Of a stretch of 32,000 bases of DNA, positions 1,670-22,155 are shown one piece after another. The position numbers and the translations under genes were made by a program. Numbering within the stretch: position 1 is the first letter of the stretch; every line of letters starts with the position of its first letter. Origin of the DNA: Breznakia sp. PF5-3 (GTDB lineage: Bacteria > Bacillota_I > Bacilli_A > Erysipelotrichales > Erysipelotrichaceae). Below the pieces are notes generated by a model. That model was not told where the DNA came from. It searched no databases and saw only the letters and a program-made list of their open reading frames with translations. Location of the stretch: assembly GCF_029504745.1 (NCBI RefSeq), contig NZ_JAQFIQ010000011.1:1-32000 (forward strand). The letters run 5' to 3'.

Positions 1670-1794
1670 TTAAACTGAAATTTATGTAGATAGAATTATA
1701 AAGTGTCTATTTTTGAAAATACAAACTTAGGCACTTTTCTTAAATTGAAATTTCAATCATAAGACGTTTTGCTAAATAAAATTCTATCTCATAA

Positions 1795-2184
1795 AGAAGT
1801 GTAGTATCTATTTATGGATATGACAACAATGGAAACGTAATCAAAAAGGATACAACGAAGAACGGAAAAGCAATTCATACAACAAGTAAGAGTTGTGATG
1901 CCAATAACAACCTCGTAAAAGAATATGGAAGTAATGAAGTGTATACGTATGATGAGAATGACCAACTGATACAACTACAAAAGGGAGCATATGTGTATGA
2001 TTACACATATGATGCACAGGGAGAGCGAGTAAAACAAATAAAGAGTGATATTAGAGAGTGTCCAATGACATTATGGTATGACTATACACTATCATTAGAA
2101 TTTGATGATGTGAGTGAAAAAGAAGTAGAAGATAGCTTTGATATCTTAAGAGATCAAGTAAGAAAGAAAAAAGCGAAGAGATAG
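1795..2184 (+). pseudogene. orphan RHS YD-repeat fragment without a start codon
   Basis: The frame is open from the stop at 1792-1794. It reads RSVVSIYGYDNNGNVIKKDTTKNGKAIH...NNNLVKEYGSNEVYTYDENDQLIQLQKGAYVYDYTYDAQGERV, several YD repeats. There is no RBS or ATG before the repeats, and it ends in three consecutive stop codons (tag tag taa). Confidence 0.6.
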
Positions 2185-2191
2185 TAGTAAA

Positions 2192-2452
2192 AAAAATGTA
2201 TAAAAAATATGATTTTTACTATTTTGCATAAAAAAACAATTTACTTTATACTTTAAACCATAATCAAGCAGACACATCTGTAAAGAAGATAATAGAATGA
2301 ATAAAATAAAAATAGCCTATACTGGACTTGATTGACCAGTTGTAGGCTGCTTTTAATATATTAAATCGTAATTCGAACGGACTTCGGCAGACGAAAACAG
2401 CGCTCTGGGGGAAGAGTGCTTAGGCTCAGCAATTTCTAATTAATGATTGTCT
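2192..2452. repeat. left copy of long inverted repeat (core 2241..2446)
   Basis: 2241..2446 is the reverse complement of 4755..4960 with no indels (paired coordinates sum to 7201); I count 7 mismatches in 206 nt. Weaker similarity with indels extends out to about 2192 and in to about 2452. Confidence 0.9.
2300..2348 (-). terminator. intrinsic terminator of the minus-strand cassette operon (lies inside the left repeat)
   Basis: On the minus strand: stem AGCCTAcaACTGG, loop tcaatcaagt, stem CCAGTaTAGGCT, then ATTTTTATTTTATT. It lies about 90 nt downstream of the stop of the 2440..2916 gene. The mirrored copy is at 4853..4901 on the plus strand. Confidence 0.6.
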
Positions 2453-2916
2453 AACTCTAAAAAACCATGCCAGCTTAATATAACGAAAAGAAAACCAATA
2501 ATCATATACATGATTGTAAGAATCAATAGAAATACAAAATATATCGAGAATAAAAATAGTAGGTATTGTACCGATATTAAAAAGACTTGTATCAATAAAA
2601 AACTGTAATAAGTATTAATCAAACTAGTGCCTTCGGTAATAAATATTCCCTTTGTTTTTCTCTGAACGCTTAACTTTTTTAGCATTTTCTTAAAATCTAT
2701 ATTTTCCATGCCAAAAAGAAAAAAAGTAGATAAAATACTAATAGCATTTAAAATTTCTAAATAATTATCAGTAATGTTTTTTATAATAGCATCATTTTTA
2801 ATTAAGAAAAAAATAACAAAAATAAGAATACTGATTATCCACGGAATAAAATGAATGCTTTTATAAGATTCTGTAAATATTTGTCTTATTTTCTTTAGTG
2901 TGCTAAAGACCAGCAT
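2440..2916 (-). CDS. small multi-pass membrane protein (about 4 TM helices), third gene of cassette
   Basis: 158 aa with hydrophobic stretches FIPWIISILIFVIFFLI, ILNAISILSTFFLFG, YYSFLLIQVFLISVQYLLFLFSIYFVFLLILTIMYMIIGFLFVILSW. The RBS AGGAGG overlaps the TAG stop of the upstream gene, which suggests translational coupling. Confidence 0.8.
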   Translation of the reverse strand: MLVFSTLKKIRQIFTESYKSIHFIPWIISILIFVIFFLIKNDAIIKNITDNYLEILNAISILSTFFLFGMENIDFKKMLKKLSVQRKTKGIFITEGTSLINTYYSFLLIQVFLISVQYLLFLFSIYFVFLLILTIMYMIIGFLFVILSWHGFLELDNH

Positions 2917-2926
2917 AATAAACCTC

Positions 2927-3694
2927 CTAAATATTCTTCTTTAATTCCATTACCAAATGAACTAAAGATAATTCTTTTCTAGTTGTATAATCTTTATAAG
3001 AATCAGCAGAAAAAATTTCGATTTTTTTAGCAAAAAAACCATCTTGATAAGCGATAGCTTTGCCATTCTTATCGATACCATCAAATGAATATTTAACTAA
3101 TGGATTATCCCTTGTGGATAGGAGGAAGGATTCTAAATCTTTATGTCTTCCAAATTTCTTTTCTCGAAAGTAATAGACGTGTTCCTCTTTATCTCGAACT
3201 AACTCAGAAAATATCTCTTGAACCTTAATAGGCAATGGTTCTTCTTCTCTTTTTTCAAATAATTGTATTTGATTTTTATTAGTACCTTTATATTTAGTTA
3301 CCCTTAATTTTGTGACTTCCATAAAATCATCAACGGAAACTAGACTTTTTATCATTTTATCTTTAATATTAAAATAATACTTTAGTATTATTGCAATATT
3401 TTTCTTTGAACCTGTATAAAAACCATCACATTTTATATAATCTAATATAAAAAAGTCACAAATATATGCACTTTTTGCGCCTATTTTTTCCTCAATACCC
3501 ACAATATCATCATTTATAGGAACTCCATATTTTACTACTGCATCATCAAGTCTTGTTATTCTAAAAACAAAAAATTGATTATCATAATCATAGATTTCAA
3601 CAACTTGAAAATCTCCAAAGTCATTCTTTACTAAATCCCTTACTTGTACTAGCTCATTATTATTAGAATCTATATATAGACATTTTAATTCCAT
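2927..3694 (-). CDS. hypothetical cytosolic protein, 255 aa, no family recognised; second gene of cassette
   Basis: I chose the ATG at 3694 (MELKCLYIDS...) over the tracked 3709 because GGGAGG sits 6-8 nt upstream of it. No TM segment and no catalytic motif I can name. Confidence 0.75.
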   Translation of the reverse strand: MELKCLYIDSNNNELVQVRDLVKNDFGDFQVVEIYDYDNQFFVFRITRLDDAVVKYGVPINDDIVGIEEKIGAKSAYICDFFILDYIKCDGFYTGSKKNIAIILKYYFNIKDKMIKSLVSVDDFMEVTKLRVTKYKGTNKNQIQLFEKREEEPLPIKVQEIFSELVRDKEEHVYYFREKKFGRHKDLESFLLSTRDNPLVKYSFDGIDKNGKAIAYQDGFFAKKIEIFSADSYKDYTTRKELSLVHLVMELKKNI

Positions 3695-3836
3695 TTCGCT
3701 TCCTCCCAATGATTATATATAATATATCATAATATTGAAGATAAGAGCTAAAATAAGTTTAACATTACAAACTTACATCATTTATGTTAATATACTAAAT
3801 TATAGTGAAAATATCTTATAATAGACTAATTTTAAG

Positions 3837-4715
3837 TCACCAGTACATTTGATATTTATAGTTAGGCATATATAGCTTATCTCCCTTTTTTAGATTACAA
3901 TTATCGCATAATATTTGGAAATTAGTTGCATCATTTGTTCCCCCTTTTTCTAATGGAATAATGTGCTCTAAATGCAATTCTTTTGATTTAGTAATAGTTA
4001 ATAACCCTGATAATTCTTTTCCACAATGTTGGCATTTTCCGTTATCTCTATAAAGAACACCTTTCTGCAGCCATTTTGATATATATTTTAATCTTTTAAT
4101 ATGCTTATAATTATTAAAACAATCACTGCCTAAATAGTTACTATTTACATATTCAGCTAAATAACTGTTAAATTTAAATAAAAAGTTTTTATTATTAAAC
4201 AATAAATAAAAAACTGAATCTACAATATCCAATTCTATTTTGTCAAAAAATACTAAAATGTCATCAATTAACCATTTTATAAAGCAACGATAATTTTTTT
4301 CATTGCTATAATCTGTAAGCTTGTATTCATTGTCTAGAACCAGAATCTTTTGAATATAATCGTTACTATAAAACACTCCATATTCATCAAGAATGCTTAC
4401 AATACTTGAAATGTGCTCTATCAATATTTTAGCATCTAAGTCATCACAAAGCTCATCTATTAAATAGTATTTTTCATTCATTAAATAAAAATATAAATAT
4501 TGCTCACAAAACGAATGTAGTAATGTATACTTTAATGGCTTTATAGCAACATTATCTATCTCAAATGTTTTTTTAATTATATCTTTAGAATTTAAACTAT
4601 GAATGTAACCTAGCATATCAATTTCTTCAGAAATATTGCTACTATTGAAGCAGTCAATAATATTAGAAGCTAAGCGATAATTAAATTTCATTTGAAGTAC
4701 TTTGAAATTATCCAT
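3837..4715 (-). CDS. HNH endonuclease domain protein with unrecognised ~220-aa N-terminal domain; first gene of cassette
   Basis: The C-terminus reads CQHCGKEL...LHLEHIIPLEKGGTNDATNFQILCDNCNLKKGDK, i.e. CxxC ... H ... N ... CxxC, a zinc-ribbon HNH. RBS AGAGG lies 8 nt before the ATG at 4715. Confidence 0.85.
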   Translation of the reverse strand: MDNFKVLQMKFNYRLASNIIDCFNSSNISEEIDMLGYIHSLNSKDIIKKTFEIDNVAIKPLKYTLLHSFCEQYLYFYLMNEKYYLIDELCDDLDAKILIEHISSIVSILDEYGVFYSNDYIQKILVLDNEYKLTDYSNEKNYRCFIKWLIDDILVFFDKIELDIVDSVFYLLFNNKNFLFKFNSYLAEYVNSNYLGSDCFNNYKHIKRLKYISKWLQKGVLYRDNGKCQHCGKELSGLLTITKSKELHLEHIIPLEKGGTNDATNFQILCDNCNLKKGDKLYMPNYKYQMYW

Positions 4716-4740
4716 TATTAAAGTCCTCTTTTTTATACTA

Positions 4741-4746
4741 ATTATA
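4741..4746 (-). promoter_or_regulatory. candidate -10 box (TATAAT) for the HNH cassette
   Basis: Plus-strand attata equals minus-strand TATAAT, about 25 nt upstream of the ATG and just inside the inner edge of the right repeat. I found no convincing -35. Confidence 0.35.
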
Positions 4747-4749
4747 CTA

Positions 4750-5012
4750 CAAAATCATCAATTAAAAATTGCTGAGCCTAAGCACTCTTCCCCCAGAGCG
4801 CTGTTTTCGTCTGCCGAAGTCCGTTCGAATTACGATTTAATATATTAAAAGCAGTCTACAACTGATTAATCAAGTCCAGTATAGGCTATTTTTATTTTAT
4901 TCATTCTATTATCTTCTTTATAGATGTGTCTGCTTGATTACGGTTTAAAGTATAAAGTAAATTTTTTTTGTAAAATAGTAAAGGTCATATTTTTTTTTAC
5001 ATTTTTAAACAT
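4750..5012. repeat. right copy of long inverted repeat (core 4755..4960)
   Basis: Reverse complement of 2241..2446 (see left copy). Its outer part overlaps the last ~25 codons of the ParB-like orphan ORF. Confidence 0.9.
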
Positions 5013-5387
5013 ATTGTTTAATAAGTTTTGTATTGTTCTTCCATAATTAATAATTTGATTTTCATGAATATATTTAATAGGTATTCTTTCATAACCTAAT
5101 TCTACAAATGCTTTATACCTGGGATGTCTATCCATAATTAGAGCTTGTCCATTGTGTACGCGTACTGGAATTGGATCAACGACATTTGGACCTTTGGTTT
5201 TAATACTTTCTTTTCTACCTTCTATTGTAGACCTATTAGCATGGCTATCTGGTTGTGTTTTATATAATTGTTTAGCATCATATGAAGTACCACTTATTTC
5301 TGTATTCCCTAACCCTTGTCTAAGAAACATTAATCCCAATATTGAAGTAAGAGTAACACCTCCAATTTCTGTTTTACAAACCTTATT
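4938..5387 (-). pseudogene. orphan polymorphic-toxin C-terminal module, ParB/sulfiredoxin-like nuclease fold (possibly degenerate)
   Basis: The stop-to-stop frame opens at 5387 directly after the upstream gene, with no ATG or RBS (the tracked start is a TTG). The segment DPIPVRVHNGQALIMDRHPRYKAFVELGYERIPIKYI resembles the ParB-type core, but DRHPR stands where DGHHR would be expected. Confidence 0.45.
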
Positions 5388-5832
5388 TCATTAATAAATT
5401 AAAACATTTCAACATATCTGATAAATTTTTTAATGATTCCTGTAAAAAGGTTTGATCAGTCTTAAACTTAAAAGAAAGGTTTAGTTGGTTTTCACTATAT
5501 TCTGAATAGTCTATTTCCACTTCTGCATGACCTTGCCCAATCATTTTAATGTTAATTTTCAAGTTGTCATCATATTCAGGGATATAGGAAGCTTCTCCAC
5601 ACAAGGTGTTATAAATTTGTTTTAGATTATCGTGAAAATTTTCAATTATTATTGTAGAAGAATAGAAATTGTTTTCACAGAATGTTAATCCGTTATATTT
5701 GATATAAAGTGCACCTCTAAGAGAAAATCCTCCATTCCAATTTTGAGATTCAGAGAAAATTTCATGTATAGTTAATTTTATATATCCTTTATTTCCTTTT
5801 AATTCAAAGGATTGTGGTTTTTCTAAAATCAT
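5383..5832 (-). CDS. hypothetical small cytosolic protein, immunity-like by context
   Basis: 149 aa, RBS GGGAGCG before the ATG at 5832, no TM segment. It sits immediately upstream of the orphan toxin tip, as orphan immunity genes do in rhs arrays. Confidence 0.6.
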   Translation of the reverse strand: MILEKPQSFELKGNKGYIKLTIHEIFSESQNWNGGFSLRGALYIKYNGLTFCENNFYSSTIIIENFHDNLKQIYNTLCGEASYIPEYDDNLKINIKMIGQGHAEVEIDYSEYSENQLNLSFKFKTDQTFLQESLKNLSDMLKCFNLLMK

Positions 5833-6004
5833 ATTATCGCTCCCATGATTACAGTATATATTCCTAAATTACTTTGAATTCATTTAAAATGATAGTATAG
5901 TCGATTCTAAGTTTTTTAAGTAATGTGATATACTAATTCTAATAAATATTATATGCAAAATATAAAAAACTCTCAATGTTTATATTTTATATAGGAGGGG
6001 AATA

Positions 6005-6508
6005 ATGTTTGAAATTAATGTGAAAAATTTAAGCTGGATTAGAGGAGCGCAAGATAATCCTAATGATCTATGTGCACATGGAACAGTGACAGCAATTATA
6101 GGCAATGAAACTTTTTCTTACAATGCAACAGTAAGTTCCACAGCATTATCTTTGTTAAGGACACTAAAAAACAATCATATAATTGGTAAAGAACATAATC
6201 AAATGCTGCCATGCTGTGGACATAGTTTTTTTCAAAATGAGGAGCAAACAAAGGCTGTAATTATTGGATGTAATAATGGAATAGACTGGAGTGTTCTTCA
6301 TGAAGATGAAGAAATAAAGATAGTAACTGAGTCAAATAAAGTTACATATGTAACTTTTAATGTTTATAAAGAAGTAGTTTTTAAGTTTGCGGATGAAGTG
6401 AAATCAATATATGATAATTCATCTGCTAAAATATTACCAAATGATACTTACCTTAAGGATGGGTACTTATTATTTTGGGAAGAGTGGAATGCGTTGCGGA
6501 ATTTATAG
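6005..6508 (+). CDS. hypothetical protein, immunity-like orphan
   Basis: 167 aa with a strong RBS (AGGAGGGG). Cytosolic, no recognisable catalytic motif; located in the toxin locus. Confidence 0.65.
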   Translation: MFEINVKNLSWIRGAQDNPNDLCAHGTVTAIIGNETFSYNATVSSTALSLLRTLKNNHIIGKEHNQMLPCCGHSFFQNEEQTKAVIIGCNNGIDWSVLHEDEEIKIVTESNKVTYVTFNVYKEVVFKFADEVKSIYDNSSAKILPNDTYLKDGYLLFWEEWNALRNL

Positions 6509-6528
6509 ATTTTAATAGGAGAAAAAGA

Positions 6529-7566
6529 ATGTTTAAAAATACAATTGATTTAGAAAAATTGAATATTTTTTATACTGCATTTCCAATGTCTTTAAAAAAT
6601 GATGTGGAAATAGTTTTGAAGAAAATATCTAAGACAGTAAAAAATCAAAAAAATATATATTTAGATAATTATATTCGATACAGATATCTTAATGAAGATA
6701 TTTATATTCCATATAGAATTTGTTTTAGTGAAATCCCAACAAAAAAAATAAAAAAACTAACATCAACGCAAAAGATGATATTGTTTTGCATTTACTCTAG
6801 ACATCATAATGGGTATGTTAGAGAAAAATATATTAATAATATATTAGATACAAATTTTTCAGATTGGTGCATTCCGTATATTTTAAAGATAATAGACGAA
6901 TATGTATATCCTATTATAGTTCAAATTAATGATAAATTAAATATTGAAAATGAAGAAAGAATCAAGAAAATATGTATGCAAAACACTAATGAAATGTGTT
7001 TAAGTTTTAATCGAATGATAAGCTATTGGAATGAATTTTATAGGGAACAATTTTCTAATATAAATGATTATGCAGGTTTCAAATTATTTTGTCGAATAGG
7101 CTACAACAAAACTATTGTTAATGAGCATTTTGAGCAATTGCATTATAGTAAACAAATTTTAGATAACGAAATTGAGCGATTAAAAATTGTTATTGTTGGT
7201 AGGGGATATATCGATATGATTACTCCCTATAGTGTAATAAAAGATTTTATAAATGTTTTAAATAATTTGAATATTCGGATTGATGGATTTACTTGGTGGT
7301 GTCATGCAAAAGATGAGCATAAAGCTTGTGGTTTTGGAGGACCACCAGATTATGATGGAAAAGGGTATTATTCGGAAATTCAAATGGGAAGTGTAATGGA
7401 ATTATGTAATGAATTTGATGTATTAAAATGTAACAATACATATTTAAATTTCTTTTTGAATGAATACCCTTATAGGAATGATTATAAAAAATGTTATGTT
7501 CCAGGATTTTGGATTGACATTCCTAATAGTTGGAAAAATATTACAGGTAACAAAAAAACACATTGA
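6529..7566 (+). CDS. hypothetical protein (345 aa), probably two immunity-type domains
   Basis: I prefer the ATG at 6529 (MFKNTIDLEK...), which is preceded by TAGGAG, over the tracked 6475 start that overlaps the previous gene. The C-terminal part is Cys/Trp/His-rich (WWCHAKDEHKACGFGGPPDYDGKGYY). Confidence 0.65.
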   Translation: MFKNTIDLEKLNIFYTAFPMSLKNDVEIVLKKISKTVKNQKNIYLDNYIRYRYLNEDIYIPYRICFSEIPTKKIKKLTSTQKMILFCIYSRHHNGYVREKYINNILDTNFSDWCIPYILKIIDEYVYPIIVQINDKLNIENEERIKKICMQNTNEMCLSFNRMISYWNEFYREQFSNINDYAGFKLFCRIGYNKTIVNEHFEQLHYSKQILDNEIERLKIVIVGRGYIDMITPYSVIKDFINVLNNLNIRIDGFTWWCHAKDEHKACGFGGPPDYDGKGYYSEIQMGSVMELCNEFDVLKCNNTYLNFFLNEYPYRNDYKKCYVPGFWIDIPNSWKNITGNKKTH

Positions 7567-14540: not shown

Positions 14541-14585
14541 AAAAAACAAGGTTGAAAACAGGTTGGTTTTCAACCTTGTTTTTTA
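14541..14585 (+). terminator. intrinsic terminator after asnS
   Basis: AACAAGGTTGAAAAC-aggttg-GTTTTCAACCTTGTT followed by TTTTT. Confidence 0.85.
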
Positions 14586-20194: not shown

Positions 20195-21739
20195 TTATGC
20201 TTCCTCGCTTTCGATATTTTGGGGTACATGATTTAATCGTTTTTCAACAAAATTCAAAATCAATGTTGCAACCGAAGTTAAAAGTAAATAAATAATACTT
20301 GTGATAAAGAATGTTTCTGTAAATAACATCACACTTCCAGCTACTGATGAAGATTGGAAATATAATTCAATAAGACCAATTACATTCAACATACTACTAT
20401 CTTTGATATTTACGATTAATTGATTTCCAATTGAAGGGAAAGAGTTTTTAATCGCTTGCGGAAGAATGATATTAAACATCGTTTGTGTATTGTTCATTCC
20501 AATACTACGTGCTCCTTCACTTTGTCCACGATCCACTGCCTGAATACCAGAGCGGATAATCTCTGCCATATAAGCACCTGTATTGATGGAAATAATTACA
20601 ATTCCAGCAGTCAATGCATTCCAGTGGAGGATTGGTCTAAAGATAGAATATAAGAAGATTGCTTGTACCATCATAGGAGTTCCTCTAAAAATCCATACAT
20701 AAAGACTTACAAAACCATGGGCAATTCTTTTTAATCCTTTAACAAGGGTACTATCTTTGTCATCTACTTCTACTGCACGAACTCCACCAAGGATTAAACC
20801 AATGATAAGACCACATAAGGTACCAACAATGGATAACAATAAAGTAATTTGAATTCCATATAAGAATAGTGACCAGTTGTTTTCAAAAATCCATCCAACT
20901 TTACCAAAGAAGTTTGTTGGAACTCCTTCTTTTGGTTGTAGTTTTGTGGATAATTTCATCATTTCACTACGATCAGCTGCTGATATTTTATCTAAGGAAG
21001 CTTGGACATCGTTAAAGAACTTTGTACCTCGTGTACCATCTTTTAAACCAATGGAAACAGATGTATCCACATTGAATCCTTTTCCTTTAGCAAAGGTAGT
21101 AATGGCTAAATCATCGTTGGTTTCAAGAACTCCTTCAGCTACTGGCATTTCGGCTGTAATCCCATCTACTTCTTTGTTTTGTAACGCCAAAAGCATTTCT
21201 GGATACGTCGCTTTTGGAGTAGCATGATCAACGCCTTTAATCTGATCGATGATTTCATCATAAGTTGTATTTTTTTGTCCGATTACGGTTTTACCACTAA
21301 AATCTTGAATCGATGAAGCTTTTTCCTCAGCACTGTCTTTACGAACAATCATAACCATTTCAGATTCATAATATGGTGTTGTAAAGTCAATTCCATTTTC
21401 ACGCTCATCATTGGCTGTCATACCAGCGATGATGGCATCGATTTCACCAGATTCAAGCGCTGGTTGTAAACCATCCCATGATAATTTCTTAATCACCAGT
21501 TCACGATCTAAATCATCGGCAATCTTTTGGGAAATCATAACATCATACCCATCACAGTACCCAGCGCTACCAATCGCTACCGCACTCTCTGTTTCGGTGT
21601 TTGTCTGCCAGTTGAATGGTGCATAATTACATTCCATTCCAACCGTGAAAGTTTCTTGTTTCTTTTCTGCTGCTACAAGTTGTATGAATCCTGTAAAGAG
21701 AATCCCACAAACAAGTAAAACTTTTGTTAGCTTTTTCAT
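20195..21739 (-). CDS. fused substrate-binding domain + permease of a polar amino-acid ABC transporter (candidate lysine importer)
   Basis: Signal peptide [15 protein letters not shown], a ~270-aa type-3 SBP domain, then a permease with the coupling loop [35 protein letters not shown] at 21739 with GGAGG upstream. A lysine riboswitch precedes it. Confidence 0.85.
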
Positions 21740-21759
21740 TTCTATTCCTCCCAATCATT

Positions 21760-21964
21760 AAAAAACGTCAATAAGAACCCACTCTTATTGACGTTATCAA
21801 CCTCATTTAAGATAGTGCTCCTACAAAATGTAGACAGTGCTATAGATATTCTCTATAGTCCCACAACTCATATATGCCTATGTGAATCATTCGGCAGATA
21901 ACTCCTAAGTAATGTGTCTAACGAATGCCTTCTTCACATCACGTCTTAGTATCTGCGCCTCTAT
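21760..21964 (-). promoter_or_regulatory. lysine riboswitch (L-box) with terminator expression platform
   Basis: The minus-strand leader reads AGAGGCGCAG...GGAGTTATCTGCCGAATG...GTTGTGGGACT...AGCACTGTCTAC...GGAGCACTATC. These match the conserved L-box blocks (GAGGCGC, UGCCGAA, UGGGA, CACUGUC, GGAGxxCUAUC). The hairpin AACGTCAATAAGAgtgggTTCTTATTGACGTT plus TTTTT (21760-21796) follows, just before the RBS. Confidence 0.7.
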
Positions 21965-22155
21965 CGATATTTAATTGTTAGGTTTATTATAGCAGTTAAT
22001 GAAAATAGTGCAAGGATTTCAATGGTAATGAGAAAACTTAGATTTTATGAATATGTCTTTGTATTTTTAGTATCTGAGAAATTGTGTACATATTCATGGA
22101 AAAAAATGATGATAAATGATATTATAATAACGTTTATAAAACGAAGGAGATAACA

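Follow-up and report, generated by a model that had tools for sequence, protein, structure and literature searches.

An inverted repeat in the Rhs orphan array of Breznakia sp. PF5-3 is composed of immunity-gene tails and spacer and is probably a rearrangement scar

The Rhs orphan array of Breznakia sp. PF5-3 contains two inverted copies of ~260 bp on both sides of a small HNH operon. We consider that these arms are probably the scar of an illegitimate, microhomology-mediated rearrangement and not the ends of a mobile element. Judged from its sequence, the arm unit is the last 11-19 codons of a DUF6896-type immunity gene together with about 220 bp of downstream spacer (a hairpin, then a block of 44% GC). 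The identity of this unit, three joints at microhomology, absent hallmarks of a mobile element and unequal strength of the two hairpins were established by the analysis. An apparent mobile or switchable cassette with toxin ends is in this way corrected to a probable scar of immunity tails and spacer. All positions refer to the window, the 32-kb stretch of contig analysed here, and the features are collected in Table 1.

Through a script check, we confirmed that positions 2241-2446 and 4755-4960 are reverse complements over 206 bp, with 0 indels and 7 mismatches that are all transitions; the longest perfect block is 89 nt (2347-2435 / 4766-4854). Variants that tell the arms apart include 2334G, 2336C and 2346G (opposite 4867, 4865 and 4855) on the outer side and 2436C and 2442A (opposite 4765 and 4759) on the inner side. 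The inverted-repeat search gave arms of 225 nt with 95% complementarity (2229-2453 / 4748-4972) and an outer extension at 80% (2191-2235 / 4962-5006), and gapped BLAST aligned 258 nt at 93.4% (2192-2448 vs 5006-4753, E about 1e-108). This repeat was the sole long one that BLAST found in the window, and the 2.3-kb segment between the copies is single-copy. The original prediction of ~260-bp repeats with a 206-bp core, seven mismatches and no indels was thus borne out by script and gapped BLAST (to 2192/5006). The hairpin and the GC-rich block that it placed in the arms are both present by fold and composition, with the right hairpin degraded.

The repeat had been described as a copy of the 3' end of a toxin gene, but the toxin homologues stop before it and the coding remnant in the arms is the 3' end of a DUF6896 immunity gene. 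Homologues of the ParB-like toxin (P0002-P0004) all finish at '...MFK' and a stop codon. The 21-residue tail 'NVKKNMTFTILQKKFTLYFKP' of the orphan toxin ORF lies beyond this MFK and is read-through into foreign DNA, not the native tail that the right copy was thought to encode. The same toxin and cognate immunity pair (ParB_N-like, DUF6896) is also found in other genomes, L004 and L015, in which the DUF6896 gene begins about 13 nt after the toxin stop. Translated correctly, the left arm gives 'EEIVVKKMYKKYDFYYFA*' at its outer end, with the frame open, and the right arm gives 'KM*KKYDLYYF' (asterisk, stop codon); both are the DUF6896 immunity C-terminus, and therefore each arm is an immunity tail followed by spacer. 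The left-arm remnant showed 15/22 identical residues with the C-terminus of the L015 immunity protein (BLASTP, E 3e-7) and 78% identity over 95 nt with L015 939-1029 (blastn, E 9e-13). The 'IKNMIFTILHKK' and the 'triple stop' reported at the left copy are wrong-frame readings, the immunity frame being open there, and they show how reading a gene remnant in the wrong frame can mislead.

Table 1. Features in and around the inverted repeat (positions in the window)
Feature	Position	Strand	Evidence
Pseudo-orphan fragment of main rhs core, pieces 1793-1923 and 1915-2182	1793..2182	+	blastn to main gene, RHS_repeat Pfam match
Left remnant of DUF6896-type immunity gene, last 19 codons 'SEEIVVKKMYKKYDFYYFA', stop TAA 2230-2232	2175..2232	+	frame-3 translation, BLASTP, blastn, three-way junction sequences
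Left arm of inverted repeat	2192..2453	+	inverted-repeat search, BLAST, script
Intact hairpin (stem 2313-2349), then UAUUUUUAUUUUAUU on minus strand	2298..2349	-	RNA fold
Block of 44% GC that holds a pair of small hairpins (near 2366-2394 and 2399-2420)	2362..2435	.	composition, fold; inside 89-nt perfect block
158-aa predicted membrane protein; last 4 codons and stop within left arm	2440..2916	-	gene call
255-aa protein, small unnamed family	2927..3694	-	homologues; AF2 model pLDDT 77, weak RdgC-like match
292-aa protein, C-terminal HNH nuclease domain	3837..4715	-	Pfam HNH/HNH_5, E about 1e-11
Right arm of inverted repeat	4748..5006	-	inverted-repeat search, BLAST, script
Degraded hairpin copy, 3 transitions in one stem arm at 4855, 4865, 4867	4852..4888	-	RNA fold
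Orphan ParB_N-like toxin ORF; native 5004-5339, 21-codon read-through 4938-5003 in repeat	4938..5339	-	Pfam ParB_N; homologues P0002-P0004 end at MFK
Right immunity-gene remnant 'KM*KKYDLYYF' (~11 C-terminal codons), joined without a gap to the final native codon of the toxin	4966..5006	-	junction sequences, comparison with L015
WapI-like immunity gene upstream of orphan toxin	5383..5832	-	Pfam WapI, E 2e-13
Best promoter-like site of region, TTGAGA-17-TATAAT, 11/12	5948..5976	-	consensus match only; upstream of minus-strand gene string

On the side of the left arm, the gene of the Rhs protein (1227-aa-plus, Tox-PL-2 tip) is followed by a 234-aa gene and then by the rhs fragment. As in an orphan module, the remnant comes immediately after the main toxin gene (YD-repeat) and the immunity gene that goes with it, and a fragment homologous to the core of the main gene is present. 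The two pieces of this fragment copy main-gene nt 1891-2021 and 2274-2543 (L008 coordinates), with blastn identities of 95.4% for the first (131 nt) and 95.2% for the second (270 nt), and they overlap by 9 nt where the internal deletion was joined. An immunity remnant in frame 1 of 2040-2184 was also considered and was rejected, since the main rhs gene matches this stretch at 94-95% identity.

At the left joint, the rhs-derived DNA passes into immunity-tail DNA at a microhomology, GTAAgAAAGAAAAaaGC, of about 15 nt; at the right joint, ATGTTTAAA meets AATGTA inside a run of A. The arm ends are not equivalent: they fall in the immunity remnant at 2175 and at 5004-5006, which leaves 19 and 11 codons, respectively. 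We found no target-site duplication at the arm ends, and the flanks GAAAAAAGC and AAACATATT share no common direct repeat. The two deletions end at most 24 nt apart in the immunity tail, a mild coincidence that counts against the scar reading. The rhs fragment diverged about 5% from its parent and the repeat core 3.4%, which makes the events similar in age.

We propose that the immunity tail and spacer underwent inverted duplication around the HNH / 255-aa / 158-aa operon, and that deletions would have accompanied or followed it. The right arm would stand in the native context, in the order toxin, immunity, spacer and HNH operon, and a later in-place deletion of the immunity gene would have fused the toxin ORF to the frame-shifted tail. 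The left arm, as judged from this one genome, may be an ectopic inverted copy, or else what remained of a displaced orphan after loss of the core end, the toxin and most of the immunity gene. Substitutions were denser in the outer 50 nt of the arms than in the core (5/50 vs 7/206, p = 0.06), which could mean that the arms descended from two already diverged modules with a conserved spacer instead of from one duplication. Among the readings offered before, a fossil inverted duplication made by recombination at the rhs locus comes closest to the evidence, but the duplicated unit is the immunity tail and spacer and not the toxin 3' end. The high identity of the core had also been taken as a sign of recent formation or of selection. 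Selection is not needed for it, because the rhs fragment is about equally diverged (about 95% identity) and the perfect block is not longer than expected by chance; in simulation, an 89-nt run given 7 mismatches in 206 nt had p = 0.14, by which selection on the block was rejected.

Modules of orphan toxin and immunity genes that follow rhs/CDI/WapA main genes, with C-terminal displacement, were reportedly described by Jackson in 2009, Poole in 2011 and Koskiniemi in 2014. The locus here is similar in that the main Rhs gene with its Tox-PL-2 tip and its immunity gene are followed by a ~95% identical core fragment and by remnants of a second pair (ParB_N-like, DUF6896), and the same pair is found within the orphan arrays of L004 and L015. 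It differs from such modules in three ways: one of the module remnants runs opposite to the main gene, the homology that is repeated consists of immunity tail and spacer in place of the tip-swapping core segment, and an unrelated HNH operon is located between the copies. Inverted duplications can also arise through template switching or through microhomology-mediated repair, among them the tandem inversion duplications reportedly described by Roth and colleagues. The short inverted copies, the joints at short or imperfect homologies and the later remodelling by deletion resemble them; unlike in those duplications, only about 260 bp is present twice here and the 2.3 kb between is single-copy, and the mechanism here is inferred. 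The locus gives a probable, base-resolved example of how an orphan toxin-immunity array decays, with microhomology joints, an immunity gene lost next to an inactive toxin tip, and an ORF that read-through has lengthened.

The hairpins of the two arms are not of the same strength. On the minus strand, the left hairpin folds at -17.9 kcal/mol (z -5.7), and 0/200 shuffles were as good; it is a stable GC-containing hairpin with the U-tract UAUUUUUAUUUUAUU, and, judged from this fold, it is likely to serve as intrinsic terminator of the three-gene HNH operon. A simple terminator scanner missed it because the stem is bulged. The right hairpin on the minus strand reaches only -8.2 kcal/mol (z -1.1), is followed only by GCUUUUAA and does not have the features of an intrinsic terminator. 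By the same folds, all genes between 5832 and 2440 may be transcribed together as a single minus-strand unit, which would run through the decayed right hairpin and end at the left one. The GC content of the block is 44%, compared with 31% in the window and 25% in the cassette.

One of the readings offered before takes the arms for terminal inverted repeats that bound a non-autonomous mobile cassette; this cassette, HNH and two other genes, would have inserted between two toxin flanks. Like the ends of transposons or MITEs, long inverted repeats (93-97% identical) do bound a discrete three-gene unit of 25% GC, and HNH homologues elsewhere are located in variable, recombinase-rich islands. Unlike such ends, however, the outer ends are unequal (19 vs 11 immunity codons) and each is accounted for by a joint in local DNA at microhomology; there is no target-site duplication, and the arms hold a fragment of the host immunity gene that is proper to the adjacent toxin. 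Pfam revealed no transposase or integrase domain inside. No second copy was found in the collections searched: scans by exact 20-22-mers of the core gave no true core copy in GTDB representative genomes, JGI metagenomes or IMG/VR, and two chance matches, one in Oceanicaulis and one in a soil contig, both in GC-rich DNA; blastn of 1700-5900 had no match in the plasmid and phage collections. In PF5-3 itself the 32-kb window was covered, and further copies of the spacer may exist elsewhere in the genome. Four loci homologous to the HNH locus contained no inverted repeat of at least 40 nt. We therefore regard a mobile cassette as extremely improbable.

Another reading is a functional RecA-driven switch, in which a flip of the segment swaps the hairpin upstream of the HNH operon and the toxin flank that feeds transcription. 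As in invertons and shufflons, the segment lies between inverted repeats and could be flipped. The 89-bp perfect block is located between the hairpins and the cassette, so that after a crossover in it the intact and the degraded hairpin would trade places with respect to the operon. The Logan short-read contigs stop inside the repeat, and these assemblies break exactly at it; but such breaks are expected at an 89-bp exact repeat with k = 31 and are uninformative on orientation. The only resolved assembly carries one orientation, and exact-protein look-ups of the flanking genes retrieved nothing but this arrangement again or contigs interrupted at the repeat. Unlike in invertons and shufflons, the repeats greatly exceed the usual length of a recombinase site and no invertase gene is adjacent, nor is there a site-specific recombinase nearby or a promoter demonstrated beyond the repeat that would give the orientation an effect. 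A functional switch is thus unlikely. It is very unlikely that homologous recombination makes the HNH / RdgC-like / membrane-protein operon a flip-switch, in which an exchange of the intact and degraded terminator hairpins couples or uncouples a defence-like operon from transcription coming out of the toxin-immunity array. An occasional RecA-mediated flip of the 2.3-kb segment via the 89-bp block, with no demonstrated role, is possible; if shown, such inversion would add a modest case of regulatory flipping that depends on RecA.

The GC block and hairpin could also be a functional RNA kept identical by selection, either an outward-strand sRNA bearing a UCCCCC loop or the leader of the HNH operon; we consider this quite unlikely. 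Two stable small hairpins and a terminator are present, a 146-nt left-arm segment folds at z about -3 on both strands, and both arms agree at all 89 nt of the block. Against this, the corresponding right-copy segment folds no better than shuffles (z -1.3 to -1.4), an 89-nt run is ordinary for 7/206 mismatches (p = 0.14), and just two copies are there to be compared for covariation. Rfam 15, at gathering and permissive thresholds, gave no family in the GC block, the best being CRISPR-DR30 at 21 bits vs gathering 50 (E = 1). The block as a conserved leader of HNH genes was rejected, as the upstream regions of three HNH homologues have no similarity to it. ARAGORN found no tRNA or att-like remnant in the block. 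The only Rfam match in the window is a lysine riboswitch away from the repeat.

By Pfam and PADLOC, the cassette genes have no transposase, integrase or recombinase domain, and only HNH was found. The flanking genes also have no recombinase domain, over 10 kb on the housekeeping side and on the rhs side to the contig end about 6.6 kb off. The 255-aa and membrane proteins were considered as a Kiwa-like pair and this was rejected: PADLOC gave no match, the fold search gave only a weak RdgC, and the Kiwa paper is without RdgC. A literature search revealed nothing on the assembly accession or on DUF6896. The HNH-plus-variable-partner gene family inside the repeat may merit separate study as a candidate defence system. 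Full-length homologues of the 292-aa HNH protein are about 294 aa with about 50% identity, and in L016 a homologue of the 158-aa membrane protein follows a homologue of the 255-aa protein.

The window contained one inverted repeat, whose position and geometry were as originally claimed. By direct count, its core (2241-2446 against 4755-4960) is 206 bp with no indel and seven mismatches, all of them transitions, and the longest perfect block within the arms is 89 nt (2347-2435 / 4766-4854). Through a repeat search of the window, we found arms of 225 nt (2229-2453 / 4748-4972, 95% complementary) with an outer extension (2191-2235 / 4962-5006, 80%); gapped BLAST aligned 258 nt at 93.4% (2192-2448 against 5006-4753, E about 1e-108). 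BLAST found no other repeat in the 32 kb except a 44-nt palindrome at 14541-14584 (86% self-complementary), which lies just past a 460-aa tRNA-synthetase gene (end 14532) and is probably a bidirectional terminator. Both arms contain a hairpin and a GC-rich block (44%, against 31% in the window and 25% in the cassette) that matched no Rfam family. The homology ends inward at about 2453 / 4748, four codons ahead of the 158-aa gene's stop on the left and 33 nt upstream of the HNH start codon on the right. The three cassette genes between the arms (2440-4715) have good ribosome-binding sites.

Genes around the inverted repeat
Feature	Position	Strand
Large Rhs gene, 3' end, Tox-PL-2 tip	from beyond the window's left edge to 951	+
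234-aa gene, presumed immunity	965-1669	+
YD-repeat fragment	1793-2182	+
158-aa membrane protein	2440-2916	-
255-aa protein	2927-3694	-
292-aa HNH protein	3837-4715	-
133-aa ParB_N-like ORF, right of right arm	4938-5339	-
WapI-like immunity gene, right of right arm	5383-5832	-

The coding remnant common to the arms is the tail of an immunity gene and not of a toxin, because the toxin homologues stop at MFK and the arms match the DUF6896 C-terminus. Only three homologues of the ParB-like ORF were found among 5.8 billion proteins, and all three terminate '...LLNxMFK'. The Breznakia ORF carries 21 extra residues past this end (NVKKNMTFTILQKKFTLYFKP); the start of this tail coincides with the right arm's outer boundary (K112 codon, 5006-5004). 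In two relatives' loci with the toxin and its immunity gene (L004 and L015), the DUF6896 gene starts about 13 nt past the toxin stop (Pfam match, E 2e-21 and 1e-18) and its protein ends '...KRKCEEMVAEGKMYKKYDLYYFK'. The left arm in frame 3 was translated as '...KEKSEEIVVKKMYKKYDFYYFA' (stop 2230-2232), with 15 of 22 residues identical to this C-terminus (E 3e-7), and its DNA showed 78% identity over 95 nt with L015 939-1029 (E 9e-13); the right arm in the immunity frame reads 'KM*KKYDLYYF'. The original prediction had the repeat copying the 3' end of a toxin gene, which these results contradict; the peptide 'IKNMIFTILHKK' and the 'triple stop' it described are other-frame readings of the immunity-tail bases. 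An ORF of 40-43 codons starting MCLLDYGLKYKVN, antisense to the immunity tail, is present twice because of the repeat (2146-2277, minus strand; 4924-5046, plus strand) and is probably spurious.

Two rhs fragments precede the left arm (1793-1923 and 1915-2182); they are joined with a 9-nt overlap and match two internal portions of the main rhs gene (L008 1891-2021 and 2274-2543) at 95% identity. At the left joint the main rhs gene reads ...GTAAGAAAGAAAAAAGC|AAACGGAG, the window ...GTAAGAAAGAAAAAAGC|GAAGAGATAGTAG and the L015 immunity gene GTAAAAAGAAAATGC|GAAGAGATGGTAG; the window switches here from rhs to immunity sequence, and therefore the rhs fragment is fused to the last 19 immunity codons, with about 15 nt of microhomology. 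At the right joint, ...ATGTTTAAA (toxin MFK) meets AATGTAAAAAAAAATATGACC (immunity tail) within an A run, which reads as an in-place deletion that removed almost all of the immunity gene and would have left the toxin ORF running into a frame-shifted tail. Microhomology was present at all three visible joints.

The ParB-like toxin is no longer accompanied by its cognate immunity gene, and a Pfam scan of ORFs in the window's first ~7.6 kb gave no DUF6896 gene; the cell could tolerate this only if the tip were neither expressed nor delivered. In the alignment of the catalytic region it carries substitutions, reading DRHPRY where the homologues have DGHHRY. In L015, the closest relative, direct repeats of about 200 bp (1-220 and 1140-1357), which contain the beginning of the following toxin ORF, flank the toxin/DUF6896 module, and the immunity gene carries a frameshift. 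The direct-repeat linker is usual for orphan arrays, whereas Breznakia has the inverted arrangement instead.

The inverted repeat is best read as an ordinary scar that rearrangement left in a polymorphic-toxin locus. The proposed fossil inverted duplication from rhs-locus recombination is supported in a changed form, its unit being the immunity tail plus spacer. Most simply, the right arm would be in its native position, since toxin, immunity tail and spacer adjoin naturally in L004 and L015, and the immunity deletion would have come later. The left arm could be what remains of a displaced orphan (core fragment, toxin, immunity, spacer) after loss of the whole stretch separating 'RKKKA' from the immunity tail, or an ectopic inverted copy made by template switching, forming a patchwork with the two rhs fragments; under either origin the tail-and-spacer piece is present twice, inverted. 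The rhs fragment differs from its parent by about 5% and the repeat core by 3.4%, so by divergence both duplications look similarly recent. The high core identity had been taken as a sign of recency or selection; the 3.4% agrees with recency, but the 89-nt perfect run does not argue for selection (p = 0.14, given seven mismatches in 206 nt). The outer immunity-derived 50 nt show slightly more divergence than the core (p = 0.06), so the arms may derive from two diverged modules with a conserved spacer in common.

The alternative that the arms are terminal repeats of a mobile cassette was rejected. No target-site duplication was found at the arm ends, and the two outer ends are not equivalent. 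Pfam and PADLOC gave only the HNH domain in the cassette, and no gene called within 10 kb on the housekeeping side, or as far as the end of the contig on the rhs side, had a recombinase domain. Recurrence of the core with other cargo was also not borne out: exact scans of GTDB representatives, JGI metagenomes and IMG/VR with 20-22-mers of the core gave no true copy, the two matches (GTDB representatives and JGI metagenomes; none in IMG/VR) being in GC-rich unrelated DNA, and blastn of 1700-5900 matched nothing in plasmid and phage collections. Four loci with HNH homologues had no flanking inverted repeat, so the repeats do not belong to the architecture of the cassette's family; a similar upstream block was absent at the three of these loci that were checked for it.

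The cassette itself is a genuine operon, probably of defence type, given the HNH-homologue neighbourhoods and the conserved 255-aa/158-aa pair. Homologues of the HNH protein number about 35; they are about 294 aa long and share roughly 50% identity, and at the four loci the downstream partners differ and serine recombinases or SLFN_AlbA_2 genes are nearby. The pair is also found in a metagenomic contig (L016, 39-1111), where a 35%-identical 255-aa homologue is followed by a clear membrane-protein homologue with a 4-nt overlap; an AF2 model of the 255-aa family (pLDDT 77) gave only a weak RdgC-like match (2owl_A, E 3e-3, TM 0.36). Directly downstream of the HNH family we observed a Peptidase_C14 gene (454 aa), a 375-aa unknown, an HTH-methyltransferase or the Breznakia pair, and integrases also occur in the neighbourhoods (L010, L011, L012, L014 and L017). 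PADLOC found weak HNH-domain matches only (REase, PtuB). The family resembles a defence-island system whose partner gene can be exchanged.

All genes between 5832 and 2440 are encoded on the minus strand. On this strand the left-arm hairpin (-17.9 kcal/mol, z -5.7, then UAUUUUUAUUUUAUU) is predicted to be a good intrinsic terminator right behind the 158-aa gene; the right-arm hairpin has -8.2 kcal/mol and z -1.1, then GCUUUUAA, with three transitions in one stem arm. The region's best promoter-like site (11/12, 5976-5948) is located ahead of the WapI-like gene. The hairpin strengths and this site make plausible a single transcription unit that would start with the WapI-like gene, take in the toxin remnant and the HNH operon, and stop at the left arm. 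Recombination between the two copies of the perfect block would put each hairpin in the other's place with respect to the operon; the proposed RecA-driven inversion, if it occurs, could therefore have an effect in principle. The sole assembly spanning the region has one orientation. Short-read Logan contigs break off within the repeat (L002 consists of the cassette only, L006 stops at the perfect block's inner edge), and such breaks at an 89-nt exact repeat are expected and uninformative on orientation.

Between the toxin remnants and the housekeeping genes, two overlapping plus-strand genes (6005-7566; 167 aa and 345-363 aa) matched no family in Pfam, PHROG or others, and may be further immunity-type or island genes. 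A lysine riboswitch (21805-21971, minus strand; Rfam RF00168, 74.7 bits) lies upstream of a 519-aa gene at 20195-21754.
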